From NCBI GenBank assembly GCA_963699255.1, contig OY969425.1, positions 480,001-512,000 of the forward strand: a DNA stretch of 32,000 nt, in the 5' to 3' direction. The notes under the pieces are model-generated. The model did not search any database and was not told the DNA's origin. It saw only the letters and a list, made by a program, of their open reading frames with translations. This document shows, piece after piece, positions 1,094 through 30,529 of this stretch (its first letter is position 1; each line of letters opens with the position of its first letter). The position numbers were made by a program, and so were the translations under genes. This DNA comes from an uncultured bacterium. GTDB lineage: Bacteria > Margulisbacteria > WOR-1 > CAVSGV01.

Positions 1094-4000
1094 AAACAAA
1101 ATTAACTTTATTATTAATGATGTTTATGCTGCTGTTTTTAAGCAAAGCATTTTTTAGTTGTTATGGCGTAGAATCAGTAATCAAACCCTCACCCAATTAT
1201 TTAGTAATTTTGGTTCACGGTATAGCTGAAACCAGCGATATATTTGATGATGATGGTAGCGGTCATCTAAAACCTTATCTAGAAGATTCCCTAAGTCTTC
1301 CAGGCTATGTCTATGCTTACGATTTTAATGATAACAAAGGATCAAATGTTGTCGCCGCAGATGAACTAGGCAATCAGTTTATCCCTCGGGCATTAAATGA
1401 TTTTAAAGCATGGTATGCCAGTAAAAACCACATAGCAGTTAATGATATCCCGCAAAATGTTATCCCTCAAAAAGTCGTTTTAATAGCCAAGAGTGAGGGC
1501 GGCCTAGCTTCCAGAGTGTACCTGACTTCCAATTATTATCATGATAATGTAAGAAAGCTCATCACATTGGATACCCCTCATCTAGGCTCAGATGCGGTAA
1601 CTTACAAAAAGCTACTATATACACCGGAGAATGTTGCCATGACTATGGCATATGCTGGTGTTGGCTTGGGATACATAATATTGCAAATGCAGGCACATAC
1701 AGCTTCCTTTGCGGATATATATTTTGATGGCGCGATATTTGCAGGGATTGTATCGCCAACAGAGCAGTTCATTTTAAAAGATTTTGTTGCAAAATGGGGC
1801 GATCCTGCCCTAGATGAGATGGACCCGGAAGGGGATTTTATTAAGCATTTGAAAGGTGCTGAAGTCCTCCCAAATAAATCGCCGATTGAATACCGATTGG
1901 TTTCTGCGCATGGCTTTCCATCTCCGGATATAGAAGGGATTAAAAGCTTTTATTTGCTTAAAGGAATTCCTCTAATTAATGCCATTGCAACCCCTTTTGA
2001 CAGCAGATATTGGGATCTTCCTACCACACAAGCTAAGGTTGAAAGTGTGGCAGCAGCAGTTGCAATTTCCGGAGGCACCTTTACAAAAGATGGGAGCATT
2101 GTTGTAGATATTGATAGCGCGTATGGACATGGAGTGTCGTTGTTTAGTCAAAATACAAAAAGATATGACTATCTCTTTTATAATGAACCGGTCGAAGAAT
2201 TTCTGAATGTCCAAATAAACAATGAGTACAATGATATTCATGCAGTCCAAGCCCTATCTGGCTTCAATCCAGCCTTAAATTGTCTGGATCTTATTCCTAT
2301 CGCTGATATGGGGAGTGTAATAGCTACTAATCTTGGCACAGCAATTGATATTGGGACTATTAAGATTGGTGGCGAAAAGGAAGATAGTCTTATATATAAT
2401 GCTTTTGCACATCATCATCTTGTTGAAAAGGTTTACTCCGAAGGCTCCCCCAACATCATAGATCAATGTTTGTTCGACACCCCCATGGCCACCGTCACTC
2501 ATCTTGACACCGATGTCTCGACTGAAGAATACAATATCAGCCAGAAGATCGTTCATACTGGCACAATTCAGCCTGTCGAGATCCTAAATACTTCCGAAGC
2601 CAGCGATACCCCGCCTTATGCAGCCGATCGTTCTGTTTCCCTCATCTTCAATGAAGGAACAACTAATGAAGTAGAGAAATATACATCATCCATGCTTGTG
2701 AAGGCCCCCGTCACTCAAATATCAGGAGTAATCCATGACTTTAAACCCTTGATGCTTCAAAGCTTCCAGATAAGTGAAAACTTTGCGGCATGGCAGGAAT
2801 TTCATCCGAACACCTGCTCGACGCATACAGATCCTCAGGGGTTTAAATATATCGATGTTGACGCGAATAAATTTCATCTTCATATGGACGAATGGGGAAA
2901 ATACACGATATCGGGTCTTAACTTTGCCGAGGGACAGAATCTGATCGGATTCAAGCTGACAAACAGGGCCAAATACAGCTCGAATCAGGTTTTGAAGGTG
3001 ATACAAAATACCATCCCCATGCAAGCCTCTAAATATCAGCCTGAATCGAATTTTATGACCAATAATGTCTATCAGCCCATAAGTGTTGAATTCAATAAAT
3101 CCACTTACTACGAAGACGAAGCGGGGAAAATTCAGATCGTCTCATTCGAAGTGGATGGAACGCCAATGCTCAGCAACGCCAATATAACTTCCGAGATCGA
3201 CGGAGCCTACCATCCCTATGCAAGAGTGAATTATACGCCCAAAACGCCGTTGTCCGACGGCGAACACGCGATCGTCGTCAGCGCAAAGTCGGACGTCGGC
3301 GTATCTCAAGCCATCTGGGCATTCTTTGTCGATACCCAGCCGCCGACTATATCGATCGAGGCATTGTCTCCTTTCTCGCCGCGCGCTCCCGGGACCGGCG
3401 AGGCGAACAACATATCGATCCGATACACCACAACAGACAACCTCTCGACATTTCTCAGAAGCATTACAGCCAGACTCTACGACTCGAATAATAACTTTAT
3501 TACTGAATTAGCTACATTTGATACACAAGCTGTTGGCGAAAACTTTATTCCTGTAAACAGTACACAGTTAACTGTAAACGGTTCTTTGATCCCTGACGGT
3601 AATTATTCGATCAAAATAAAAGCGTATGATCAGGCCGGCAATGTCACCACCGAATCTGTTGCTTTAGTAATCGACTCGACCCCGCCATCAATAATCCAGG
3701 CTGATGTCAACCCGAAACCTATGACCTCTAATTCAGATTCTCTAAACTTTAGCTCCCAGCTTTCGGAAAATTCGATAGTCACGATAAAGATGATAAATAA
3801 AGCGACAAATGTAGCTTCTGCTTATATAACACAGGCGCAAAGAGCGGGAAGTGAAGAGAGTGCAACAGCTTCCTATTCCTGGAGCTACAATAATCAATTC
3901 GGCTCCAACGGCCCCGACGACGGAATATACAGGCTGGAGATCACCGCCCAGGACCAGGCCGGCAACGTTTCCGATCCGTATGTTATCGATAATGTTAAGA

Positions 4001-7000
4001 TCGACCGAACTCCGCCGTTCATATTCTCGAACGCATGCCTGCCTTATGTGCTTGCAAATGTCGGCAACGATCCATACACAACAACTCTCAGTTATCAGGT
4101 ATCGGAATCAAATGACAAACCTGAGAACCAGGATGAGAGCTGTAATGTAACCGTCAGTTTATTTAATGAGAACTCAGGCGAGCTGATCAAGACATGGGAC
4201 AATGCGCCGGCGAATATCGGCGAAGTGAACTCGATAAACTGGAATGGGGATTCGACCCAGTACGGCAACGGGTCTTATAAATTCGCGATAACCGCTACGG
4301 ATGCATCCGGCAATTCTTCTACCGCGTATTCTTCCTGCGTCAAGAACGGCATCGCTCCTGTAATTTCATTTCCGGCAAATAACGGAACCGTATCCGGAAC
4401 TATCGCTATTCGCGGCACCGCAGTAGACCCCGACTGGACGAACAACCTGCCGTTCAAAGATTACAAAATATACTATGCTAATGGAAATGTGCAGTGGACA
4501 GGGGGCAGTGGGCAGGATCCGGATCCGTCTGTGTGGAGATCCGACGTTATCGAAGTCCCGGATGTTGACCGCGATCCGGCATCCGGTATCAGGAATCTAT
4601 CAATAAGGCCTTTGCAGAATGATTCCACACTCGCTTATCTCTACTCTAATGGGCTTGACAATGGAACTTACACTTTACTGCTTATCGCGGAAGAGGACGG
4701 AGGCACAACGTCGGCCTGCACAAGGGTCATCCGGGTCAGCAACGATCCTATGATAACGTCAACGAATGTTCCTGTGGTGAAACTTGACCCGCTTCCCCAA
4801 AAAGTCCATTTCACGTCTGACGGAAAAGTTACTCTTCCGATCTCGTTCATGAATGGGATCAAGGAATCGAACGTCAATATTGAAATAGCACAATTACACA
4901 ATTCCACAATGACCAATGAAGGTATTGTATTTTATAAATTCCAGCCGGACATCATCGGCAATCAGTACACAGGCAAACCGCAATATATACCCGGTAAAGA
5001 TCTAGGCTATTACCTCTGGACCGACGAGACCGGATGGCACATCCGCTGGTCATCGGACGGGACAAACCACCATTTCACGGGCAGTTTGATGGGGTCAGGA
5101 ATTACGGATATCCAAACCTTCAATTGGACTCCGTCAGGACAGGTACAGGGCTTTGTTAACTGGGATACGAATATGTCAAATGGCGAATCCGGCATTGACT
5201 TTACCGCGAACAGCGGCGGAATGATCATAATTACTCCGAAGATCGACGAAGATCCAAATGTACCCACTTTTAATGCTTCAAACATATATTTAGGCATGAC
5301 AAAAGCGACACAGGCATATTTACCCATCATGATAAACACTTCAATGGAAGGTGTCGCGCCGGCAGTTGTCAATTGGGACGGGAAGCTTGATACCGGAGGA
5401 TATGTTGATTCCGGCGTATATACCGTCCGAGTGCGTTCCGAAGGCGCGGACGGGGTCGGGCTTGCAACGGACGAAGCTCAGGTAGAGGTTGAAACGGACT
5501 ACGATGTGTCAAACGTTGAGACTGTCAATAACAGCTTCTCGCCGGTAGGCGCTCCCGATAGAGTGTCGATCTATTACAATGTTTCAAAAGATTCATATAT
5601 CACGGCCTATGTCTATCAGGACGGCAGCGGTACGCCTGCCGCAACCATAACCAGCGAGGCCTTCGTATCAGGAAATATGAACCCGAACCATAAGCATGTT
5701 ATTAACTGGCGCGGCAATTATCCGAACTCTGATTCCACCCAGTTCTTCAGCGGCGGCGGGTTCAATATAAAGATCATCGCGACTGCGGCTGACGGCTCCG
5801 GCAGTAAAGAGATCAATATCGACGGCATAAGTATTGCAGGAACAAGGACCGACTCAAGCCTTGCAAGCCTCGATCCGATAGGGGATGAGGTTATGTTCAA
5901 CGGCGTTCCTTCCAGGATAGCGAACGGCTCATCGGATTATTTCTTTGAAGCCCGCGGAACGGGGCGCCTGTATCCACCAAAGGAATTCAGCTTCAACATC
6001 GCTCCCTACGGAAGACAAACTGTCACTACTTATCCTTATGTTCCCTTCGCAGCGTTGATCCATAGGGGATATAAGCAGGTGGATGTAAAAATGCGCGGGG
6101 AGCTGAGCGGTGCAATAAGGGAGCATTTTACAGAGGGATCAGCTGGCGCAAGCGAACAGATACATACAGAAGGGTTTCGTGTCGGGCTTGATGAGATGGC
6201 GTGGGGTTTCAGGAGCGATAAAGAAGAAATGAACGCGGCCGCACAAAGAGGCCCTTATGCAATTTATTTGCGCGGCAAAAGTGTGAATAGCATATATGCG
6301 GGCAGGAATGCCGGCGCAACGACAAAATTCTACGGCAGCCCGTATCTTTCTTTGACTTTTAATACAGGTAGGGGGGATCCCGGTTATTTCCTGGATAATA
6401 TTGACAATATCCCGGTTATGGAACAATTTGATATAAACATTCCTCCGACCGTGGAAAGCCAGGGAGACGCAAAAGAAAATGATTATATAAAAGGAATATT
6501 GGAAAATATGATGAGTAAAATGACCCTGGACTACCCGAGCACAAAAGGGATGTTCAAGGTCGAGATAAATTATGACGATTTCAAGATAAATAAACATACA
6601 GATGCCGCGTCATCCAGTGGATTCATTTTTTCTCCCCGCAGGAGGGTAGCTACTATCCAGCCGCCAATCGGGAATAACGGATCGGATTTCTGGTGCCGCG
6701 CCAGGGTCATGCTTGAGGCGCCCGTCCAGTATTCGCGATTGACCAACAGGTTTATTCCCTTTTTTGGCTTTGTAAATAGGAATGTGTCAACTTCAGAATC
6801 TTTGGCGGGAGCTAATTACAATATAGACCAACTAGGTTTCCCTGGAGATGAGTTCTTCAATAAATCGAATGCAAAGCCGTATAATGAGTACGACGAAATG
6901 CTTGCTTCCGCTGCGGCAAGGCAGAACATGTCTAAAGCAGATCTGATTAAAGCTTTGAGCGATTTGAGCATCCAAAAGAATTATATCGGAACGTTAACAG

Positions 7001-13000: not shown

Positions 13001-15237
13001 ATATTGATCAAAGTGAGATCGAGATAATAGCTAATGTTTTTGATAATTCATACGATCCATCCATATATCCTCATCCAGGCTCCCTGTCTCCATTATCGGT
13101 TTCTGCCGAAGTTTGGCTTGGCGAAACGTTTATCAAGGGACTGGGCAGCCAGCTATATTATTCAACTACAGAAACACATGGGTTTAATTGGGATGGCTTG
13201 AATGCATCAGGTGATTATGTGAACGAGGGTGTTTATACCGTCAAACTGCATGCTATTGACGGCCTTGGGAATATTTCCACTTCGGAATATCAGATTAATC
13301 TTGCCGATGACCAGCAATTAACCACAGGAAAAGGCAGCTTATTTTCGCATGATCCGAATTTAACTTTATCAGGCACTATTTTGAAGGTGAAGCTCATTAG
13401 TGGAGAGAGTTGGGGCAAAAGCACAATTTCTTTACCTAATTGGGTGGGTGATCCCAGCTATAGTGGTGTGGGCGCATGTATTGATTTTACCGCGCAAAGA
13501 GACCAAAATGCTCTTTTTACTGGAGAGGCTTCTCCTACTGGGGGAAGTTATTTATATGAAATATTAGGCGCGAACGGCAGTTATCTTTGGAGAAGTTATA
13601 CATCCGGTAGTGGTTCTAAGACAGCGGATGTTAATCAGGGAATTCGATATCGGGCTTTCTTCTATACTTGGGCGGGAGGAGGACTCATACACGCAACAAT
13701 AGATCAACCAATGTATAATATCATTCAGACCAAATCATTGGCTATATCATCTGATATCTGGCATGATCTTTGTTCCTCTGAAGTAAAAGAAGCGGATCCT
13801 TCTGCATCAAATTCTTCTGGGTCTATTCAGCATTATGTTTGGCCATCGACATTTATGGGATATATATATTATCAACCCAGTTGGTCTGAGGGATGGTCAA
13901 ATTTATATAATTTCGGTAACAAAGAAATTGTGTATAGTAAAAAAATAAATGGTAATTGGAAGTCCACTGGTAATTGGGATAATGAGTTCTGGCCCAGATG
14001 TGATTTTCCGATAGAAACAAGGATAACAACTGCAGCCGGCGACTCCATAAACCCATCAGTTGCCTGTGATTCAACCGGTTATAAAGTCTATGTTGTCTGG
14101 GAAGATTATCGCAACGGAAAAGCGGAGATATATTACAAGCAATCTGTAACTTCCGGCGAAACTTGGCCTTCTAATGATACCCAGCTAATTTCTTCTTCAG
14201 ATGCCTGTATGCTGCCGTCAATTGCTGTCGATCAAGGGAATGCATACATTTATGTCGCATTCATAAAACAAGTTAACAGCCATAACGAATTGTGGGTAAA
14301 AAAAGGGACGATCAGTGGAAGTAATGTTACATGGAATAACAATCCTGTCCGCATAACCAGGTATGAGTTTTCAAGCTGTGAAGCTTCCAAGCCATCGATC
14401 GTCTGCGACACGTCCGGCAATGCCTATGTCGCATGGGAAGACACAAGGACAGGAACCTCCGAAATATTCTCCCAGAAAGTACCTTCCAACTTCGCGCCAT
14501 TCTCCGGCTCAGGCATGACAACAATGTCCATGCCGAATGATAAGCCTGTCATTCAAACGCAAATGGTCATTCAATCCGTATCAAGCACCCCGGAGCTTAT
14601 ATCTCCGATCGGCGGAGCAACAGATAACACACTTCGACCAACATTCAAATGGTATGGGGTACAAAATGTTACAGATTATCGAATAGAATGCGCAACATCA
14701 TCGGACGAATCATCGCTTGCCACTTCGATGGATTATTTCACGGCAACGATCTCCGATGTATCAGGCGCCAAACCCATATGCGAATTTACCCAGAACGAAC
14801 ACCTCATGGGCCTTGATGAAAGCGCCCCAAACCATCCTTTCTGGTACTGGAGAGTACAGACGATCACCTCGGAAGCGTCAACGTCAGAAGTCGGCTCTTT
14901 CAGAATTGAACTGCCAGCAAGCTTGTCAGGCGTTACTAACTGGCCAAATCCGTTCGATCCCAACAAGGAAAGAACAAAGATCCGTTATAGGCTTGGCCGA
15001 GAACCCAATTCGGTCACGATCAGAATATATGACATCACCGGAGCATTAGTTAAAGAGTTTGACGGAACAACGAATCCCGAAGGGGCCAGCATTTGGAACA
15101 AATATAACGATGTCGAGTGGGATGGAAGGAACGGCAGGGGAGACATGGTGCTAAATGGAGTGTATCCGTTCGAGATAACCGTCAATTACGGTGATAAGTC
15201 AGTCAGCGGGCGGGGAAAGATGGTGGTGTTAAAATGA
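1090..15237 (+). CDS. Giant (~4,715 aa) secreted surface protein: lipase-like head, FlgD-Ig-like module array, propeller-like segment, T9SS-type C-terminal domain
   Basis: This is a single uninterrupted 14.1-kb frame; the ORF track starts it at 1069. I prefer ATG 1090, which gives MKTKLTLLLMMFMLLFLSKAFF (a signal peptide) and an ATGA overlap with the upstream gene. Domain evidence is listed in the sub-features. Confidence 0.9.
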   Translation: MKTKLTLLLMMFMLLFLSKAFFSCYGVESVIKPSPNYLVILVHGIAETSDIFDDDGSGHLKPYLEDSLSLPGYVYAYDFNDNKGSNVVAADELGNQFIPRALNDFKAWYASKNHIAVNDIPQNVIPQKVVLIAKSEGGLASRVYLTSNYYHDNVRKLITLDTPHLGSDAVTYKKLLYTPENVAMTMAYAGVGLGYIILQMQAHTASFADIYFDGAIFAGIVSPTEQFILKDFVAKWGDPALDEMDPEGDFIKHLKGAEVLPNKSPIEYRLVSAHGFPSPDIEGIKSFYLLKGIPLINAIATPFDSRYWDLPTTQAKVESVAAAVAISGGTFTKDGSIVVDIDSAYGHGVSLFSQNTKRYDYLFYNEPVEEFLNVQINNEYNDIHAVQALSGFNPALNCLDLIPIADMGSVIATNLGTAIDIGTIKIGGEKEDSLIYNAFAHHHLVEKVYSEGSPNIIDQCLFDTPMATVTHLDTDVSTEEYNISQKIVHTGTIQPVEILNTSEASDTPPYAADRSVSLIFNEGTTNEVEKYTSSMLVKAPVTQISGVIHDFKPLMLQSFQISENFAAWQEFHPNTCSTHTDPQGFKYIDVDANKFHLHMDEWGKYTISGLNFAEGQNLIGFKLTNRAKYSSNQVLKVIQNTIPMQASKYQPESNFMTNNVYQPISVEFNKSTYYEDEAGKIQIVSFEVDGTPMLSNANITSEIDGAYHPYARVNYTPKTPLSDGEHAIVVSAKSDVGVSQAIWAFFVDTQPPTISIEALSPFSPRAPGTGEANNISIRYTTTDNLSTFLRSITARLYDSNNNFITELATFDTQAVGENFIPVNSTQLTVNGSLIPDGNYSIKIKAYDQAGNVTTESVALVIDSTPPSIIQADVNPKPMTSNSDSLNFSSQLSENSIVTIKMINKATNVASAYITQAQRAGSEESATASYSWSYNNQFGSNGPDDGIYRLEITAQDQAGNVSDPYVIDNVKIDRTPPFIFSNACLPYVLANVGNDPYTTTLSYQVSESNDKPENQDESCNVTVSLFNENSGELIKTWDNAPANIGEVNSINWNGDSTQYGNGSYKFAITATDASGNSSTAYSSCVKNGIAPVISFPANNGTVSGTIAIRGTAVDPDWTNNLPFKDYKIYYANGNVQWTGGSGQDPDPSVWRSDVIEVPDVDRDPASGIRNLSIRPLQNDSTLAYLYSNGLDNGTYTLLLIAEEDGGTTSACTRVIRVSNDPMITSTNVPVVKLDPLPQKVHFTSDGKVTLPISFMNGIKESNVNIEIAQLHNSTMTNEGIVFYKFQPDIIGNQYTGKPQYIPGKDLGYYLWTDETGWHIRWSSDGTNHHFTGSLMGSGITDIQTFNWTPSGQVQGFVNWDTNMSNGESGIDFTANSGGMIIITPKIDEDPNVPTFNASNIYLGMTKATQAYLPIMINTSMEGVAPAVVNWDGKLDTGGYVDSGVYTVRVRSEGADGVGLATDEAQVEVETDYDVSNVETVNNSFSPVGAPDRVSIYYNVSKDSYITAYVYQDGSGTPAATITSEAFVSGNMNPNHKHVINWRGNYPNSDSTQFFSGGGFNIKIIATAADGSGSKEINIDGISIAGTRTDSSLASLDPIGDEVMFNGVPSRIANGSSDYFFEARGTGRLYPPKEFSFNIAPYGRQTVTTYPYVPFAALIHRGYKQVDVKMRGELSGAIREHFTEGSAGASEQIHTEGFRVGLDEMAWGFRSDKEEMNAAAQRGPYAIYLRGKSVNSIYAGRNAGATTKFYGSPYLSLTFNTGRGDPGYFLDNIDNIPVMEQFDINIPPTVESQGDAKENDYIKGILENMMSKMTLDYPSTKGMFKVEINYDDFKINKHTDAASSSGFIFSPRRRVATIQPPIGNNGSDFWCRARVMLEAPVQYSRLTNRFIPFFGFVNRNVSTSESLAGANYNIDQLGFPGDEFFNKSNAKPYNEYDEMLASAAARQNMSKADLIKALSDLSIQKNYIGTLTAPTCTASFEYYLTDPISGEFGDILPGTEIIPITVPDGEQPILISEKTPNKYYTGGGTIEIQGLQVGAKTDYTSAYDNTNHLPFFSFNFPASEAEIQQFQSNNDALLDKFKRSPSLWTGISASSPHELDITSVTRSIEAVTKLGQSIKYGSNGYYYKSDTLGSLWGWNSNNYPNATDIRYSIDDISDQSISLDTDQTGTGEFSTNSCLIGSIQGASGQMWATADDPMLSAFGGCIASREIFNRDGFSGYSQFINISDPYIKNVVNLQNMNSPDMTKYTFWKYDPAISSIDAFNPVDNQYLTYDNWSIDLKDLSGGENTDLAAVTPEMDSSDHLKDQFKVKLRLDSAEKKYIDITGYASGEYYLMYFDGNSWNQIGHSLKGANGMLGWWNVSRLNGKYTVVLKLAGSDIISSQDVLIGSIVKNDHVTTVSSPYKRAEVTFKPGAFDKDQLVTVTPVKMDEIDISNRPLIPTVGPIVEVKPSPYYFSCGSTESEDYRPTLVFKYTKEDLLEMYPDLKEVNGTLEVASLGLNIHQITQNGDLQVISDNKQSYNDGIYAFEGPLDHFSEYALIRGKYNLIAPIIQTDRYNVNFSPITVYGTAPADSVLNVYVSPSKEVDISSLGSIASLDLPKNDSGIAEFRFDRIPLAAEGDNYIFVTSTQGGARTLSDIRVNYDLTPPTVEVAADIPAYSPNGDGKFDIVTYKVKSNEDGKLYFTLQGTNGDTIINNELSCEADEEIKIYWDGSQLYMYLGADKVILGEAPVREDGEYAYIVFAIDESGNISNNIVGKTIVDRVAPKISGLTASPNPFSPNDDQVNDTTTISFEVNEPSYATVKIFRGGELFRSYGFSIPDALSSIPCFTWDGSGDHNELIGGSYTYYVEAEDSVGNMSTSETGTIFVDREPYLVQYAYCDPYYFAPKNPKNNMTNVKYSLSRDDVKVTVEIFNGTGKVIATPLDEQVENSGEHQVSWNGEGAIDGTYGFRVKALSVDGSASCEVTGNLVIDNEPPTVIIKSCNVGDTSCEVVYSIPEDAKVTVNVVDQNGTAVETIVTGETQTAGQYEPVWNFDSGNTEPGAQYSFKISAEDKALNTDEKQSATFSLPGPLEISGVSSAPAIFNPNSEIINKYTTIKYRLSSKADQSQVTIKVLTDAGATVKRLTDGEYQTPGSYSIFWYGDDLTGKTVTAGNYTIDISAVDPLGNKASVQVPVIVAANSSCVLSVTPEVFSPNGDGVADTATFTYSVDYYWQLTGEAYIQLDVLDGSGNSIYTYSDHHTQGTYSHIWNGQGAYDGQFNAVIKMTDPAGSVIYSNIVPIKADMKAGSALPETGFIYNNGFTPNGDGQSDTCAFIYSIDEPSYVTVKVHTFSATASYDATNLVKTLVDNVLTPAGTQEVIWDGSTDGPGDTDGNGFVNKGEYVFALETTDQFGNISPKQGATVWVQDVPLNINAPSLIENPTPKVLGSNGSNINFAFTLSQSLEGEAQEPEKFTISGMKIKAAGIYDVGRVTVKVYDHAGNLAATLANKQVYDNNGTKTVSWDGSGASEDKYTIIASAEDLTGVPAAQSISGVTYLDKTPPVISGVSISRSCFSPGINDVSINYSVSDNLSALTTDVANKVKATIKVYNNDVLTKTITDGVTKDSGSVSADLWDGTRNIGGYVGTGNSASNEPDGEYTIKISAVDVAGNTAEVSQAVYVDTIDPDITNISISPSPFSPGGAKPNSNITASITDESSVTWEVKIETGANPVISFGSGTSVSCTWNGMNGIVSYEGDGIYNCVISAFDAAGNVYQTTRVITTDTVAPVITASASPEFLSGNMGQITTLEMSISDMNDHIYWNVIIAGSTESGSVEGNTVNEVFIWEPPHTSSGDGSYNFVITATDDAGNTRTTIETVSIDNTPPVISIESPAGQTWLKGSVSIDGSVQDPHPGTWTLYYAGGIIGSGTGNISDQLLGSLYVGTHDGDIVVSLVATDAAGNPATPVSRELYIDNTPPVFTYITSEVGTSMQNYFNPYIDQSEIEIIANVFDNSYDPSIYPHPGSLSPLSVSAEVWLGETFIKGLGSQLYYSTTETHGFNWDGLNASGDYVNEGVYTVKLHAIDGLGNISTSEYQINLADDQQLTTGKGSLFSHDPNLTLSGTILKVKLISGESWGKSTISLPNWVGDPSYSGVGACIDFTAQRDQNALFTGEASPTGGSYLYEILGANGSYLWRSYTSGSGSKTADVNQGIRYRAFFYTWAGGGLIHATIDQPMYNIIQTKSLAISSDIWHDLCSSEVKEADPSASNSSGSIQHYVWPSTFMGYIYYQPSWSEGWSNLYNFGNKEIVYSKKINGNWKSTGNWDNEFWPRCDFPIETRITTAAGDSINPSVACDSTGYKVYVVWEDYRNGKAEIYYKQSVTSGETWPSNDTQLISSSDACMLPSIAVDQGNAYIYVAFIKQVNSHNELWVKKGTISGSNVTWNNNPVRITRYEFSSCEASKPSIVCDTSGNAYVAWEDTRTGTSEIFSQKVPSNFAPFSGSGMTTMSMPNDKPVIQTQMVIQSVSSTPELISPIGGATDNTLRPTFKWYGVQNVTDYRIECATSSDESSLATSMDYFTATISDVSGAKPICEFTQNEHLMGLDESAPNHPFWYWRVQTITSEASTSEVGSFRIELPASLSGVTNWPNPFDPNKERTKIRYRLGREPNSVTIRIYDITGALVKEFDGTTNPEGASIWNKYNDVEWDGRNGRGDMVLNGVYPFEITVNYGDKSVSGRGKMVVLK
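1195..2450 (+). other. Domain: lipase-like alpha/beta hydrolase (class-2 lipase / PGAP1-like motif order)
   Basis: NYLVILVHGI (HG strand); VVLIAKSEGGLASRVYL (A-x-S-x-G nucleophile elbow, Ser codon 1492-1494); KLITLDTPHLGS. Candidate acid and base residues are KDGSIVV (2089-2091) and AFAHHHLVEKV (2410-2418). Confidence 0.6.
3328..5000 (+). other. Domain array I: Ig-like (FlgD-Ig / Big-like) modules
   Basis: Module starts VDTQPPTISI (3328), IDSTPPSIIQ (3669) and IDRTPPFIF (4000). Each module closes with DG-x-Y...(I/V)-x-A-x-D-x-AGN. Confidence 0.6.
9010..13300 (+). other. Domain array II: at least 10 FlgD-Ig-like modules
   Basis: D-x-(T/E/V)-(P/A)P boundaries occur at 9010, 9361, 9991, 11685, 12055, 12358, 12649 and 12925. 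SPNGDG/SPNDD strands occur at 9055, 9408, 10654 and 10981. W(D/N)G...G-x-Y motifs recur throughout. Confidence 0.65.
14020..14490 (+). other. Domain: BNR/Asp-box-like beta-propeller segment
   Basis: Repeated strands YKVYVVWEDYRNGKAEIYYKQS and NAYVAWEDTRTGTSEIFSQK, plus SVTSGETWP (Asp-box-like S-x-x-x-G-x-T-W). Confidence 0.45.
14921..15234 (+). other. Domain: T9SS type-A-like C-terminal sorting domain (FlgD-Ig fold)
   Basis: NWPNPFDPNKERTKIRYRL...VTIRIYDITGALVKEF...WDGRNGRGDMVLNGVYPFEI...GRGKMVVLK at the extreme C-terminus. This matches the N-P-F-N-P...I-Y-D-x-x-G...S-G-V-Y...K-(M/L)-x-L-(L/V)-K pattern of Por-secretion tails. Confidence 0.65.
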
Positions 15238-15647
15238 ACAGTGGACAGTTAACAGTGGGAAGTGAAAGTACTGTATCAAAAGAGTTTGAGTTCGACTTTG
15301 AAAGATTGAATGTTTATAGAACATCAATATTGAATTTTCGAAGTATTTTAGCTCTCACTAAATCCTTGCCGAGAGATCTGCAGTTTTCATTGGCGGATCA
15401 ATTGAGAAGAGCGGCTCTCTCCATATCAAATAACATAGCTGAGGGAAGCGGAAAAGAATCGAAAAAAGAAAAAGCGTATTTTTATTCCACGGCTCTTCAT
15501 TCTGCCAGAGAATGCGTCCCTATGTTAACGATTCTTTTCGAGGAACGAATCATCAATCAAAATGATTATGCCCAATTTCGTCGAATTATAGTAGAGATTA
15601 CAAGCATGTTAAGAGGATTGATTGGATCAGTGAGGCAATATAAATGA
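15234..15647 (+). CDS. Four-helix-bundle protein (the '23S rRNA intervening-sequence protein' family)
   Basis: LADQLRRAALSISNNIAEGSGKESKKEKAYFYSTALHSARE is the family signature (A-x-SI-x-x-NIAEG...S-x-x-E). It has ATGA overlaps with both neighbours (15234-15237, 15644-15647). The true start may be a few codons inside the ORF. Confidence 0.8.
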   Translation: MNSGQLTVGSESTVSKEFEFDFERLNVYRTSILNFRSILALTKSLPRDLQFSLADQLRRAALSISNNIAEGSGKESKKEKAYFYSTALHSARECVPMLTILFEERIINQNDYAQFRRIIVEITSMLRGLIGSVRQYK

Positions 15648-16591
15648 AAAAAGCATTAATTTGTGTCTTATTCCTGTTCACTTTAAACTGTACACTTTTA
15701 ACTTGTTCCTATGGGATTACTGGTCAAGCCGGTCTCGATATCGCTGTTCTCGAAGCCGGTGTTGGAGCCAGGGCTTTGGGTATGGGAAGCGCGTTTACTG
15801 CAGTAGCGGACAACGCCGACGCGCCATTCTGGAACCCCGCGGGTCTTTCTCAAATAAAGAACAATGAGATAACGGCGATGCAAACAAAGTTGTCCACCGA
15901 TGCAGACCATTATTATGTGAGCTATGTCACGCCGCTGTTTGGCGGGGGTTTGGGTATAAGCTGGATACAGGTGGGAATGAGCTCGATAACCCAGACCGGT
16001 AGCTCCACAGGCGAATATAACGAGGTTGAGAATCTTGGCATATTCAGTTACTTTTCTAATGCCTATCTTCTCGCTTATGGAAGGAACATTACCGATAACT
16101 TGAGCTTCGGCATCACCGCCAAATATCTTACATCCGACATGCCGGGATTGGTATCGGTCGAAGGAGCCAGCGCTTATGGATATTCAATCACGCCAGGACT
16201 GCTCTACAAACCGACAAAAGACCTTTCCATCGGCCTTAAGATCGATGAACTGATCAATTATCAGAAGTGGGGGACGGATACGGAAGAGATTGTTCCGTCA
16301 AAATACAGGCTCGGGATAGCATTCGGCACACGGGTTCCCATAATCGGCAACCCGCTGCTATTATCAGGCGATATCAGCCAGATAAATAAAGCTGGATATG
16401 TTCCAGAAGGAAGCGCGGGTGCCGAAGTTAAATTCGGTCAGATAGCTTTTCGGGTCGGATATAGCGACCAGGCAATGAGCGGAGGAGCAGGGTTTGAAGC
16501 GGAGCATATCGCCATCGATTATGCTTATGTCACACAGACAAGTTTGACGAAAGATAACGTGCATAGGGTCAGTTTGACCGGGAAATGGTAA
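15644..16591 (+). CDS. PorV/PorQ-family-like outer-membrane beta-barrel
   Basis: A signal peptide, then GVGARALGMGSAFTAVADNADAPFWNPAGLSQI, which is the N-terminal signature of PorV/PorQ-type barrels. Amphipathic strands alternate through the body, and the terminal residues are SLTGKW (aromatic end). Confidence 0.65.
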   Translation: MKKALICVLFLFTLNCTLLTCSYGITGQAGLDIAVLEAGVGARALGMGSAFTAVADNADAPFWNPAGLSQIKNNEITAMQTKLSTDADHYYVSYVTPLFGGGLGISWIQVGMSSITQTGSSTGEYNEVENLGIFSYFSNAYLLAYGRNITDNLSFGITAKYLTSDMPGLVSVEGASAYGYSITPGLLYKPTKDLSIGLKIDELINYQKWGTDTEEIVPSKYRLGIAFGTRVPIIGNPLLLSGDISQINKAGYVPEGSAGAEVKFGQIAFRVGYSDQAMSGGAGFEAEHIAIDYAYVTQTSLTKDNVHRVSLTGKW

Positions 16592-16595
16592 GGGA

Positions 16596-16671
16596 GCTAT
16601 CAACGGATTAAAAAACGGACCAACGGATGAAACTGTCAACGGATGTGGCCACGGAGCAACGGATAAATGAA
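16596..16671. repeat. Left arm of palindromic element: six tandem (C/A)(A/C)ACGGA(T/C/G) octamers
   Basis: Octamers at 16601, 16613, 16621, 16637, 16649 and 16657. Positions 16633-16671 pair with 17188-17225. The element begins with GCTATCAACGGAT. Confidence 0.8.
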
Positions 16672-16686
16672 TTAAGGGAAGAGGAA

Positions 16687-17187
16687 ATGGATAAGTTAGT
16701 TAAAACAAAATATGACGAGATCACTTATAAGATAATCGGGGCAGCAATGGCTGTGCATGGCAGATTAGGCTCTGGACTGAAAGAAATACACTATCAGAAA
16801 GCTATGACAGAAGCCCTATTGTCGCTCAATGTGAATTTTGATGAGCAAAAACAGATAGGGGTTTATTTTGAAAAAACTCTGGTGGGCCTGTTATTCCTTG
16901 ATATATTCGTCGAGAATTCAATCGTAGTGGAACTTAAAGCATTATCTCAGCAATTAACAAAGAATGAACTTGCGCAGGTTATTACATACTTAAAAGCCAG
17001 CGGCAGCGAGATCGGCCTATTGATCAATTTTGGAAGAAAATACCTGGAATACAGAAGGGTTTTCCCGCCAAAGAAAATGACGGAATTCGATCAAAATGAT
17101 TGGCGTTTCGCAGTGAGGTTCAAGAACCCGGGATTCAGAGGGAATATGCTCAATAAAGATCAACAAGTGACATGTGTATTGCATTAG
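16687..17187 (+). CDS. GxxExxY protein (PD-(D/E)XK nuclease-fold family)
   Basis: YKIIGAAMAVHGRLGSGLKEIHYQKAM (G-x-x-E-x-x-Y motif) and FLDIFVENSIVVELKA (D...E-x-K). I prefer ATG 16687 (SD GGGAAGAGGA) over the track start at 16627, which would translate the octamer repeats. Confidence 0.8.
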   Translation: MDKLVKTKYDEITYKIIGAAMAVHGRLGSGLKEIHYQKAMTEALLSLNVNFDEQKQIGVYFEKTLVGLLFLDIFVENSIVVELKALSQQLTKNELAQVITYLKASGSEIGLLINFGRKYLEYRRVFPPKKMTEFDQNDWRFAVRFKNPGFRGNMLNKDQQVTCVLH

Positions 17188-17225
17188 TTCTTTTATCCGT
17201 GGATCCGTGTGATATCCGTTGACAG
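17188..17225. repeat. Right arm of palindromic element (inverted ATCCGT(T/G)(G/T) octamers)
   Basis: The reverse complement reads ctgtcaacggat-atca-cacgga-tcc-acggataaaa-gaa. The left arm reads ctgtcaacggat-gtggc-cacgga-gca-acggataaat-gaa. About 31 of 39 positions are complementary. Confidence 0.8.
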
Positions 17226-17242
17226 GAATTTAGGGAGGCAAT

Positions 17243-18217
17243 ATGAAAAAAATATTCTTGGTTATATTTGCAATTATATTTTCCAGCTCGATCGCATTTT
17301 CCATGGGAACCATGCCGCCGACAAGTGAGACAGCAGTTGCTCCTTCCGTTGCGTTCGTGAGATCGATAGGCAGCGCCGGTTCAGGCAACGGCCAATTCCT
17401 TTATCCTCGTGATGTTTGTGTCGGAGCATACGGGGACCTCTCAACCGGCCTTGGTAATATCTTTGTCGCGGATACGGGAAATAACAGGATCCAGGTTTTT
17501 GACAGCGGCGGGGATTTTTTGTTCCAGTTCGGGAGCTTTGGAAGCGACACAGGAAAGTTCAATTCGCCGTCAAATGTAGTGGTCGATTTCAATTTCAGTA
17601 TCTATGTTATGGACAGGGAGAACAGCAGGGTGCAGAAATTCGACATTAGAGGCAATTATTTATCCGAATTCGGATCTTTTGGGTCGGACTCCGGGCAATT
17701 CAGCGATCCTTGCGGATTAGCTGTTGATTCCTGGGGGAGGATATTTGTTGCTGACACGGGGAACAATAGGATACAAGAATTTGATACAACGACTTCTTTT
17801 CTCGCTTCAATAGGGTCATTCGGTTGGGGTGATGGTTTCTTTGACACGCCTCGCGATGTCGCAATAGACAAAGACAAGAATATCTATGTTGCGGATACGA
17901 AGAACGACAGGGTCCAGAAACTTGATGAATTCGGGAAACTTATCCTCTCGTTCGGAAAATCCGGCAGCGCTGACGGCGAGTTCCACAGTCCCTCAGGGAT
18001 CGCGGTCGATGATAAATTCATCTATGTGAGCGACAGCGGGAATAACAGAGTTCAGGTCTTTAACAGGAGCGGAGTTTTTCTCGCGAAATTCGGATCGACA
18101 GGATCTAAGAACGGCGAGTTCAACGATCCGACCGGCATATCGGTCGGCAAACCCGGACAGCTTTTTATTGCTGACACCAATAACCATCGCGTGCAGGAAT
18201 TCAGGATAAGTTTCTAA
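17243..18217 (+). CDS. Secreted NHL-repeat beta-propeller protein (six blades)
   Basis: There is a signal peptide. Six repeats have the form G-x-G-x-G-(Q/E/K)-F-x-x-P-x-(G/D)-(V/I)-(A/V)-V-D...(I/Y)-(F/Y)-V-(A/S)-D-(T/S)-x-N-x-R-(I/V)-Q-x-F. The SD is AGGGAGG. Confidence 0.85.
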   Translation: MKKIFLVIFAIIFSSSIAFSMGTMPPTSETAVAPSVAFVRSIGSAGSGNGQFLYPRDVCVGAYGDLSTGLGNIFVADTGNNRIQVFDSGGDFLFQFGSFGSDTGKFNSPSNVVVDFNFSIYVMDRENSRVQKFDIRGNYLSEFGSFGSDSGQFSDPCGLAVDSWGRIFVADTGNNRIQEFDTTTSFLASIGSFGWGDGFFDTPRDVAIDKDKNIYVADTKNDRVQKLDEFGKLILSFGKSGSADGEFHSPSGIAVDDKFIYVSDSGNNRVQVFNRSGVFLAKFGSTGSKNGEFNDPTGISVGKPGQLFIADTNNHRVQEFRISF

Positions 18218-18290
18218 CCGACATTAGAACTTGCCCCTATTTGCCGGGACGGTTCTGAATCTGCAATTCGGATCTAAGGGAATATACGAT

Positions 18291-28566: not shown

Positions 28567-29718
28567 CTAAACCTTTGAAAGCGCGATATAGAACCTGGCC
28601 ATATCGGGATCGACATTGTTATAATCGATATACGACTCGGCATATCTGTTGTAGGCATATCCGATCACCGCTTCGATCTCGCCGTTATAGAACATTGGCA
28701 CTCCGGGGAGCGTCGCGATCAGAGCTGTCGCGGTCATTTTTTCCGTCCTGTCAAAGTACCTTAACTTGTCTATCGTGTGGCCGTTAAAATATACATCTCT
28801 TACGTCATGCCCGTCGATATTATGGACCGCTGAAAAAGCCGAACGCGGGCCCTGCGCCCAGGTCAACGCGCGCAGATAGTTATCAAAATCGTTGACGCCC
28901 ATGCTGCCTTTGAACGCGTCATAAATAAAATAAGGGCAATCCTGGTCCTGAACAAGGTCAGCCCCGCAATTCCAAATTTCGTTATGAACATACTTATCCA
29001 TTGTTTCCGCCAGGAATTGGGCATTCGGATTAAGCTTTTTCGCTCTTGTAATGACCTCCTGCAGGAAATCTACAGGATACAGCTTGTCAACTTCTGATTC
29101 TCTTCCATGATACCAGTTTTCTTTCATTATTCTCTTCAGCAGCGCCGGCGCCGCGTCGATCCTCAACCCGTCAAAACCGAGTTCGTGCATAAGATCAACG
29201 GATCCAAGAAGATATTTCTTCACTTCGGGATTTAAAAAATCGAACTGGGCGGTATCCGCGAAAATATGGCTTCCGTTGCGGTCGGTCCCGTGTTGGATCC
29301 ATCCGGAATCATATTTCAGGAACCAATCCGGATGATCGATCAATAAGGGGCTTATCCTTGAGACATGGTTCAGTATCGAATCGCATATAACTTTCACTCC
29401 GTTGTCATGGATCGTCTTGATAAGGCTTATTAATTCGCGTTTTGTCCCGTACCTTTCCTCGATCTGATATAGGTCCGTAAGTGCAAAAGGCGCAGCACCT
29501 CTTCTGATCTCAGTTTTTCCGCCGTATTCGATCTCCGCGCCGTTCTGGAGCACGCCGCACAGCCATATGGTTCCAATATTATGCCCTGCAATTTGCGGAA
29601 TTCGCTGTTCAATATTCTTAAAATTGCTTATGCGGATATCTTTTGAGTAGTTATCCTTGACCATGATCTGATACATGGTTTTTTTCATTATCCAGTAACT
29701 TTTCGCAATGATCGACAT
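28567..29718 (-). CDS. GH13 alpha-amylase-family catalytic part (ends at an in-frame TAG)
   Basis: GH13 regions I-IV are present: VICDSILNHVS, GFDGLRIDAAPAL, FLAETMD and VHNIDGHD. I prefer the start at 29718 (AAGGAG 9 nt upstream) over the track start at 29787. Confidence 0.75.
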   Translation of the reverse strand: MSIIAKSYWIMKKTMYQIMVKDNYSKDIRISNFKNIEQRIPQIAGHNIGTIWLCGVLQNGAEIEYGGKTEIRRGAAPFALTDLYQIEERYGTKRELISLIKTIHDNGVKVICDSILNHVSRISPLLIDHPDWFLKYDSGWIQHGTDRNGSHIFADTAQFDFLNPEVKKYLLGSVDLMHELGFDGLRIDAAPALLKRIMKENWYHGRESEVDKLYPVDFLQEVITRAKKLNPNAQFLAETMDKYVHNEIWNCGADLVQDQDCPYFIYDAFKGSMGVNDFDNYLRALTWAQGPRSAFSAVHNIDGHDVRDVYFNGHTIDKLRYFDRTEKMTATALIATLPGVPMFYNGEIEAVIGYAYNRYAESYIDYNNVDPDMARFYIALSKV

Positions 29719-30529
29719 GCCGAATAACTCCTTATATTTGAGCTTGCACCTCAAGTATATATCAATAAGAACGCGTGATAATTTCAATTAAACCGGAAGA
29801 TGAAGATATTTGATCGCGGGATCGAAGCTGTCGCACGCAAAAATGATCGAAAAAGGGAAGGGGAGAGAGCCAGAAAGATCAAATTCAAACGTTTCTCAGG
29901 CGGATATGGCCGTAATAATCAATAAATAACATCAAAATCCCATATTGCCACATAAATTCCTAAGGTGACGAATAATGGTGACGATTATCATGGGCAATTA
30001 TGCGCCACTATTAATTATCACTTTTGGCGTCCCAATGCGAAAAACAAGCCATTATTATGTTTAATCGTGTACATGCGTGAATATGCCAGACAGAAATCCA
30101 AATAAGCCATTTACAGCCCCGAAAACTCAAAGATCAACTCAATAATACTGAAATAAACCCCAAAAACATCAAAATGAACCCCTAAAATAGGTAGATAGAT
30201 ACCGTAAGATGTAAAGTCGATGACAAATTCATCAAAAAACAACAAAATTTATACAAATATACATACATATGGCTAAATTATGAGAAAAACAGCTTAAAAT
30301 AGGCAAATATAAGGCACAATACGGCCTGAAGATCCTAAATCGAATGAGAAACTTTGTCAGAAAAACCGAGTAAACAACTGGCCAGGGATAAATCTCATGA
30401 CATAGGTATGGAGTGGGACTGCCGGGGGTGAAAAATCAGTATTTTTGTGCTACAAAGCCACCTTTTGATGCTTGCCTTACTTGACATAAGATATATTATG
30501 CGACGTTAAACATGAAGAAAAGCGGCTGT

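Follow-up and report, generated by a model that had tools for sequence, protein, structure and literature searches.

Why should a small nuclease-fold gene lie as the loop of a long inverted repeat between two protein-coding genes of an operon? This question is raised by a locus of an uncultured WOR-1 bacterium (assembly GCA_963699255.1, contig OY969425.1, positions 480,001 to 512,000), a stretch of 32,000 nucleotides (nt) that is called the window in what follows and whose first letter is position 1. Within it, a gene of the GxxExxY family is enclosed by two complementary arms made of short repeated units, and the whole cassette is found between a PorV/PorQ-family gene and an NHL-repeat gene. 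The arrangement recalls the intervening sequences (IVSs) of 23S rRNA genes that carry open reading frames (ORFs). These have been known since about 1990, and their origin, their mobility and the role of the ORF are unexplained (PMC4990558). In Coxiella, the IVS has 428–444 nt, a 28-bp terminal stem, an S23p ORF and a guanine-plus-cytosine (GC) content lower than that of the genome; it has long been suspected to be the remnant of a mobile element, and IVS stems are excised by RNase III in this and other bacteria (PMC4990558). The window cassette is not inserted in a 23S or 16S rRNA gene (helix 25 or 45). Overall, we think that it is best read as an IVS-type hairpin cassette residing in a transcribed spacer of its host operon, and we give this reading a probability of roughly 55%. 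Loci from contigs of relatives or plasmids, with which it is compared below, are designated by L-numbers (L002 and so on).

The enclosed gene and its stem

The left arm (16596–16672, plus strand) opens with an outer terminus, GCTATCAACGGAT (16596–16608), and carries six octamers with an ACGGA core, namely CAACGGAT at 16601, 16621, 16637 and 16657, AAACGGAC at 16613 and CCACGGAG at 16649. A first-pass annotation of this DNA had described them as six tandem octamers; their number and core hold, but their strict tandem order does not, because 0–8 nt lie between units in the flanks and the octamers are interspersed. Absent from that annotation was a 36-nt tandem duplication inside the left arm (16597–16632 / 16633–16668, 72% identity), which therefore provides two alternative left termini, GCTATCAACGGAT (CTATC...) and CTGTCAACGGAT (CTGTC...). 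The inner terminus is the perfect complement of ATCCGTTGACAG at the far end of the cassette, and this pair (16633–16644 with 17214–17225) is the perfect 12-mer that the annotation had pointed out. The three inverted copies that it had reported in the right arm (17188–17226, plus strand) are equally present, as ATCCGTGG at 17195, ATCCGTGT at 17203 and ATCCGTTG at 17214, and the arm finishes with the terminus ATCCGTTGACAG(G). The arms fit the gene as tightly as had been claimed, the left one ending 16 nt 5' of the ATG and the right one starting from the first base after the TAG stop. In general form, the conserved termini of the cassette are GCTATCAACGRAT ... ATYCGTTGATAGC. The octamer CAACGGAT is found seven times in the window against 1.19 expected, a count that none of 100 shuffles reaches, and five of the seven copies lie in the cassette flanks.

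In the predicted stem, pairing of the inner part of the left arm (16633–16672, plus strand) with the right arm gives 14 bp followed by 1, 6, 9 and 3 bp, with small internal loops between them. The flank-to-flank duplex has −52.7 kcal/mol, compared to −25.4 ± 3.9 kcal/mol for shuffled arms (0 of 1000 shuffles as good), and only one of 846 equally spaced pairs of the window matches it, which may be the cassette itself. When the arms are joined by a GAAA loop they fold at −51 kcal/mol with a z-score (z) of −8.0, and the flank-duplex z of the cassette gene is −6.0, against −1.7 to +1.3 for 13 ordinary genes of the window. The idea that terminal complementary sequences form a long stem around the ORF is thereby borne out, and the long-range stem is recovered in both the minimum-free-energy and the centroid structures of the whole 656-nt stretch. 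That the arms are a chance similarity or a decaying, functionless remnant is in our opinion practically negligible as an explanation. The whole stretch has a z of only −1.35, slightly better than shuffles, and the mismatches between arms comprise 131 transversions against 98 transitions, which would suit such a remnant; on the other side stand an arm-to-arm z of about −7 to −8, the recurrence of the layout in many contexts and phyla, and conservation of the arms above synonymous sites, which already contradicts it.

Besides the arms, the cassette has a purine-rich region, GGGAAGAGGAA (16674–16684, plus strand), which is conserved in the closest relative, L002, lies unpaired in the loop 5' of the ATG and is the putative ribosome-binding site. 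The NHL gene has its own site, AGGGAGG, about 5 nt 3' of the right arm. The GC content of the cassette is 0.39–0.40 versus 0.45–0.52 in the neighbouring genes. No terminator-like site was found on the plus strand of 16300–17500 and no promoter-like site inside the cassette, and an Rfam search of the whole window gave no match. Neither 17225 nor 21724, the latter being the end of a second hairpin described below, is followed by a T-run, and an intrinsic terminator was rejected because no U-run follows the hairpins. An integron attC site was likewise rejected, as there is no integrase. The flanks of the NHL gene (17165–17242 / 18230–18303) also pair above shuffles (−44.8 kcal/mol, z −3.5); this pairing involves the right arm of the cassette and may be partly due to chance through GGATCC-type palindromes.

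The gene itself (16687–17187, plus strand) encodes 166 amino acids (aa) and belongs to the GxxExxY nuclease-fold family, as had been proposed, with matches above cut-off to PF13366 PDDEXK_3 (E 1e-30, 107 bits, cut-off 22) and to TIGR04256 GxxExxY (E 1.6e-31, 109 bits, cut-off 35). The start preferred by the first-pass annotation, ATG 16687, is supported because the relatives have 166 aa; a 186-aa form of the protein matches only one Logan contig of 991 nt and one NCBI contig of 1.77 Mb, and the locus is present in the Logan read set ERR10755942. The motif G30xxE33xxY36 and the residues D72, E82 and K84 are intact, and all six are invariant in an alignment of 30 sequences. An AlphaFold2 model of the 166-aa protein (pLDDT 87) was matched by Foldseek to generic PD-(D/E)XK folds only, namely Cas4 SSO0001, the AdnAB nuclease domain and a restriction-endonuclease-like protein, and such generic matches of a predicted structure give no hint about the substrate. 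PF13366 is listed as being of unknown function (PMC3424549). A sequence search of the PDB with the protein gave no match, the PADLOC search for defence systems returned nothing meaningful, and the exact 166-aa protein is not on record. Scanning metagenomes with the protein gave three loci, and a viral scan gave no locus.

A search for further GCTATCAACGRAT-bounded units, as the first-pass annotation had suggested, disclosed a gene-less one in the same window, 4.4 kb from the gene-bearing cassette. This hairpin (21636–21724, plus strand, 89 nt) is closed by a terminal inverted repeat of 13 nt without mismatches, GCTATCAACGAAT / ATTCGTTGATAGC; its left side has three ACGAAT units, its right side has three ATTCG units, and the loop is short. 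Its parts are ordered as GCTATCAACGAAT-GAGG-TAACGAAT-AAACGAAT ... loop ... TTT-ATTCGTTG-ATTCGCT-GGG-ATTCGTTGATAGC. It starts 6 nt after the stop codon (21629) of a 1132-aa SprA-like gene, ends 26 nt before an ATG at 21751 and folds at −32 kcal/mol (z −5.7). Since ACGAAT/ATTCGT replaces ACGGAT/ATCCGT in this copy, both of its arms have changed in concert. A resemblance of its loop to the first 20 nt of the gene (ATGGAT..TAGT..AAAA) was too weak to be taken as evidence.

Two related structures were met outside the window. On L008 (2740–2825, minus strand) there is a lone left-type array, formed by GCTATCAACGGAT twice and then CAACGGAT units, which immediately precedes the ribosome-binding site and start ATG of an unrelated gene for a signal-peptide protein, with no right array nearby. 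On L030, a Gemmatirosa plasmid, a gene-less hairpin of three CACGCGGAT and three ATCCGCGTG units (1090–1162; −61.8 kcal/mol, z −7.2) comes right after a GxxExxY gene, and a SAM_alpha riboswitch match is found at 1275–1351.

Relatives, gene neighbourhoods and movement

These arms and termini recur with relatives whose protein is 57–84% identical, spread over at least five gene neighbourhoods; conservation of the arms in other copies of the gene family was a point on which the first-pass annotation had made its proposal depend. The window and L002 (84% identity) share the orthologous slot between PorV and NHL genes. In L004, L007 and L016, and probably in L010 and L011, the cassette comes after a sigma-54-type promoter and before a HisKA_7TM kinase gene. 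It precedes an outer-membrane protein gene in L012, is placed between two unrelated genes in the WOR-1/Saganbacteria-type contigs L017–L024 (308 and 292 aa in L017), and lies beside a ParE toxin gene in L025. The terminal inverted repeat CTRTCAACGRAT / ATYCGTTGAYAG is present twice in the window and also in L002, L004, L007, L017 and L025. The number of units per arm ranges from about 2 to 9 across the relatives, and both arms rise and fall together, as in L010 compared with L011.

Comparison of related copies indicates that the arms are under selection, as they are better conserved than third-codon or synonymous sites (84–95% versus 64–68%). Between the window and L002, the arms are 90% and 84% identical (84% for the right arm) against 63.5% at third codon positions, and the neighbouring genes have 54–66% identity. 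Between L004 and L007, the right arm is 95% identical versus 68% at third codon positions.

The unit has also moved, because the gene tree disagrees with the genomic context. Protein identity is 72–76% between window/L002 and L004/L007, while it is only 60–63% between L004/L007 and L010/L011/L016 although both of these groups have the kinase context. The earlier suggestion of a mobile cassette is thus sustained by the same arms and gene in unrelated neighbourhoods and by a gene tree that does not follow context. No direct repeat abuts the termini in the ten junction pairs that were read for a target-site duplication. A clean empty site was not found either: the NHL homologues of Margulisbacteria/Saganbacteria (54–57% identity) have other upstream genes and no element. 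A scan of genome contigs with the right-end pattern matched the L007 contig only.

Movement could be explained at the DNA level. The encoded PD-(D/E)XK nuclease would bind or cut the terminal repeats and ACGGAT units and excise or copy the cassette, the gene-less hairpin would be a derivative comparable to miniature inverted-repeat transposable elements (MITEs) or REPINs, and the RNA stem would be a by-product. We consider this rather unlikely, even if much of the above agrees with it: the termini keep their sequence, GCTATCAACGRAT / ATYCGTTGATAGC, in different contexts and genomes, several subterminal units are in inverted orientation, the catalytic D-E-K residues are intact, the cassette has relocated, and a gene-less copy, a tandem/deleted copy (L017) and the lone array of L008 exist. 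In addition, ACGGA-like cores recur in the arms of GxxExxY genes of Treponema, Fusobacteria, Gemmatirosa and Bacteroides. Against it speak the absence of a target-site duplication at any junction read and the fold matches to generic PD-(D/E)XK proteins only, besides the evidence given in the following sections. The cassette indeed resembles MITEs and inverted-repeat transposons in its terminal inverted repeats, in the motifs repeated near its ends, and in having gene-less derivatives with internal deletions; unlike these, it has no target-site duplication at the junctions read, its only gene encodes a PD-(D/E)XK-fold protein where a recognised transposase would be expected, and it keeps a strict orientation with host transcription. 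The systems of repetitive extragenic palindromes (REP/REPIN) and their RAYT genes also have a single gene between inverted short repeats and gene-less hairpins in spacers just after stop codons. Their gene is of the HUH/Y1 RAYT type, unlike the PD-(D/E)XK fold found here (PDDEXK_3 match only), and in our case the comparison concerns two copies in a 32-kb window and one lone array in a relative.

Some further features of these loci may be mentioned. The sigma-54-type promoter, TGGCGGGAAAGTTGCT, is found about 12 nt before the cassette start in L004, L007, L010, L011 and L016, and is preceded by an inverted-repeat site, TGTCGA..CGACA, and a CTGTCAAT box; these elements together span about 20–130 nt before the cassette. 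In L012 (2900–3000 and ~3600–3790), the promoter module is repeated downstream of the right arm. In L017 (3436–3625), the GxxExxY protein has 153 aa and not 166, since a second left array stands in place of the gene's final codons. Next come a ribosome-binding site, an ATG, some 50 nt of remnant sequence and the right array, an order that suggests a tandem copy which has lost an internal part.

The same layout around IVS-family genes, and the host operon

Is the layout confined to this group of relatives? Among plasmid genes, complementary flanks were found in three of six GxxExxY genes (Bacteroides finegoldii z −8.9, Bernardetia z −4.4, Treponema z −2.4) and in nine of 12 four-helix-bundle genes, the latter including Calothrix (z −7.9), Geminocystis (z −7.6), Riemerella (z −5.5) and the TCAGGAG-type arrays of Nostocales. 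The median flank-duplex z is −2.4 for 17 plasmid genes of these two families, versus 0.09 for the 13 ordinary window genes (Mann–Whitney p 0.0006). The relatives contain further examples: L004 has GTAACGAG/GTAATGAG units and the complements of these on either side of a four-helix-bundle gene, and L007 has CACGAAA/TCGAAAA units with their complements around a second PDDEXK_3 gene. The units differ from element to element: CACAGAGGA, CACAGAGA, TCAGGAG, GGGTGTA, GGGAAAA, GGAGATA, GGTGACA, AAGGTTC, GTAACGAG and CACGAAA. Complementarity is kept across elements, and not one particular sequence. Because the units differ while complementarity is kept, and because a non-nuclease family has the same layout, structure seems to be the common requirement. 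Both facts tell against the DNA-level account, since four-helix-bundle genes encode no nuclease and the units vary widely among elements.

One of these loci links the layout directly to rRNA. In Azospirillum lipoferum (L045), the four-helix-bundle gene lies inside a 23S rRNA gene, with an Rfam large-subunit match across the locus, and is therefore a genuine IVS. Its arms, TCAGAGGACGGATGACAGAGGACGGAGGACAG and CTATCCGTCCTCTGTCTTCTGTCATCCGTCTTCTGA, pair with −74.4 kcal/mol (z −6.0) and are arrays of short GACGGAT/GACAGAG units, whose core is partly shared (ACGGAT) with the window; their resemblance extends to the window units CAACGGAT/CCACGGAG. The likeness of the window's stem-plus-ORF unit to an rRNA IVS, on which the first-pass annotation was built, thus finds a counterpart in arms of the same construction at a genuine IVS. 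That annotation had also taken both GxxExxY and four-helix-bundle ORFs as residents of IVSs; this is true of the four-helix bundle (L045), but was not confirmed for GxxExxY, given that only the four-helix-bundle family was seen inside rRNA here or is named in the literature consulted. None of the other 17 plasmid loci is in rRNA. With the ORF-bearing 23S IVSs of Coxiella, Leptospira and Azospirillum, the window cassette has in common a small ORF, here of a family putatively associated with IVSs, within a terminal stem of about 28–35 bp, a GC content below that of the surroundings, and a sporadic distribution that suggests transfer. It differs in lying between protein-coding genes of an operon and not in rRNA helix 25 or 45, in carrying a GxxExxY ORF and not the four-helix bundle of S23p-bearing IVSs, and in having, within its family, arms of variable unit number plus a gene-less copy; excision by RNase III would here be an extrapolation. 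The ORF product of rRNA IVSs, 23S_rRNA_IVP, has been called functionally uncharacterised (PMC11270868).

The cyanobacterial four-helix-bundle genes examined here sit inside arrays of the short tandemly repeated repetitive (STRR) type. Like STRRs and the repeats of Beggiatoaceae, where intergenic heptamer arrays (TAACTGA repeats) are found upstream of start codons (PMC4679880), the arrays discussed here consist of units of about 7–8 nt, are intergenic and often end at a start codon. By contrast, STRR and TAACTGA repeats (PMC4679880) have been presented as direct arrays that may have a regulatory role, and the literature searched does not describe them as paired arms enclosing an IVS-family gene. 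Arrays linked to IVS-family genes outside rRNA were not found in a literature search, which is weak evidence as subscription journals were mostly outside its coverage.

Several arrays around these genes deserve separate mention. Four-helix-bundle genes in the cyanobacterial plasmids L039, L042 and L044 have arrays on both sides and are placed between cas6 and cas4 or between cas10 and cmr3, that is, in transcribed spacers of CRISPR-Cas operons; L042 and L044 have complementary arrays, whereas those of L039 are direct. The direct repeats are AAAAGCT/AAAAGCC heptamers in L039 and CTCCTGC in L047, and the Fusobacteria plasmid L027 (~620–690, 1095–1125) has a direct 27-nt repeat containing ATCCGTGT. 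From their repeats, L027, L039 and L047 look like insertions of the gene into a tandem array that was already there. In L004, units of GTAACG type occur four times (3556–3580, 5632–5672, 5935–5980 and 6365–6410); two of the sets bracket the four-helix-bundle gene with the usual polarity, and the other two bracket the HisKA_7TM kinase gene with the opposite polarity (complement, then forward).

The operon that hosts the window cassette (1069–21629) encodes a 4722-aa surface protein, the PorV/PorQ-family protein, the NHL beta-propeller protein and the 1132-aa protein, which has a weak SprA/Sov match; by its gene content, the operon is a type IX secretion-like cluster. Its NHL protein has the nearest homologues in Margulisbacteria/Saganbacteria (WOR-1). 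A second IVS-family gene (15234–15647, plus strand) encodes a four-helix bundle (PF05635/TIGR02436, with a weak Avd-like match) and lies between the 4722-aa gene and the PorV-family gene, with an ATGA overlap at both ends and a GC content of 0.36–0.38; a tblastn search of plasmids with its protein gave no match. Elsewhere in the window there is a 31-nt inverted repeat (29710–29740 / 30304–30334), 74% complementary, with arms 563 nt apart.

Possible pairing in the transcript and its meaning

At which level do the arms act? The enclosed gene is co-oriented with the annotated downstream gene in 18 of 18 cases, most of them between co-oriented operon genes (cas6|cas4, cas10|cmr3). In the kinase context, comparison with the established sigma-54 consensus points to a TGGC-N7-TTGC promoter, and the left terminus, about 12 nt past its −12 element, coincides with the predicted transcript start. 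Moreover, the sense duplex is 10–19 kcal/mol more stable than the antisense one in seven of eight members of the ACGGAT family, and the arms of the L045 IVS are 15 kcal/mol more stable on the RNA strand, with the same sign and size. Across 25 elements, the transition mismatches between arms are compatible with G·U pairing in 61 cases on the sense strand versus 37 on the antisense strand (p 0.02), and double changes from A-U to G-C and from G-C to A-U are observed in the terminal stem. Together with the lack of an internal promoter or terminator, the co-orientation, the sense stability and the G·U excess favour pairing in the transcript. These lines are suggestive and not decisive, because the loci are interrelated and the asymmetry is mixed among four-helix-bundle loci. 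The co-orientation, which a DNA transposon would not need, and the excess of G·U on the sense strand are unfavourable to the DNA-level account.

A transcript-level role without a stem cassette can also be imagined. The left array would be a site in the 5' untranslated region for a factor acting in trans, for example of the CsrA/RsmE type, and the right array an anti-sequestor controlling the enclosed and the downstream genes. CsrA/RsmE sites have the motif A(N)GGA, which the ACGGAU core resembles, an unrelated gene in L008 has the lone left array directly 5' of its ribosome-binding site and ATG, and the arrays of relatives begin at the predicted start of sigma-54 transcripts. Heptamer direct repeats of Beggiatoaceae end 1 nt before start codons (PMC4679880), which would also agree. 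We nevertheless think that such a leader is very unlikely, for it leaves unexplained the conserved terminal inverted repeat and the joint movement of arms and gene. In addition, the gene-less copy uses ACGAAU, which has no GGA, and there are other elements whose unrelated units also lack GGA; CsrA-type binding was therefore rejected as a general explanation.

Several observations weigh against an IVS-type cassette acting in RNA. The terminal 12–13 nt are conserved in sequence with few compensatory changes, so recognition by a protein also fits, and covariation in the 13-bp terminal stem is not significant versus shuffles (30 of 500). The G·U excess is modest, comes from phylogenetically related loci and amounts to 29 versus 19 (p 0.19) in the ACGGAT family alone; among four-helix-bundle loci, the sense strand is more stable in only five of eight. 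The flanking arrays of L027, L039 and L047 are direct and not inverted, L043 has only a right array, L008 only a lone left array before an unrelated gene, and L026 no array. The four-helix-bundle gene of the window itself has no arms (z −0.1). Lastly, as there is no clean empty site, the exact insertion boundaries are given by the termini only.

The IVS-type reading would bring these features together as follows. The cassette consists of the GxxExxY gene with its own putative ribosome-binding site, enclosed by complementary arms of short units and closed by a conserved terminal inverted repeat of 12–13 nt, and it lacks both a promoter and a terminator. Once transcribed as part of the polycistronic RNA, its arms would pair into a stem of about 33 bp from which the gene is looped out, and the ribosome-binding sites of the cassette gene and of the downstream gene would stay free of the stem. 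By analogy with ORF-bearing 23S IVSs, the stem is a likely substrate of RNase III, a double-strand-specific RNase, and cleavage may set the cassette message free and allow the host transcript to tolerate the insertion; it might also uncouple the upstream and downstream messages, as the first-pass annotation had proposed. Over evolution, the cassette has relocated between genomic sites, its arms may lengthen or shorten by duplication of units, and loss of the gene can leave a bare hairpin.

A wider claim can be made only tentatively, and we would not quite put it at even odds. Hairpin cassettes of a single general class would carry as their cargo two very large families that are functionally uncharacterised, TIGR04256 (GxxExxY) and TIGR02436 (four-helix bundle, 'S23p'), and would have arms of short tandem units that include the cyanobacterial STRR-type heptamers. 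Any transcribed spacer could be colonised, 23S IVSs being only the best-known sites, and gene-less hairpins and lone arrays would be the remains of such cassettes. On our reading, the window shows a cassette of the IVS type in the spacer of an mRNA, accompanied by a sibling that has no gene, and there is a realistic chance that it represents a broader, undescribed class.

If stem-plus-ORF units do reside in ordinary operons, the question of the IVSs would be freed from rRNA and opened to comparative genomics, through occupied and empty sites, co-evolution of the arms and gene-less derivatives, and tens of thousands of annotations as 'GxxExxY' and 'four helix bundle' would gain a genomic context. 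Such units would also be a candidate explanation for short intergenic tandem repeats in cyanobacteria and other phyla. For annotation, they would provide a mark of likely RNA-processing sites in operons, such as those between cas genes and in the type IX secretion-like cluster described here.

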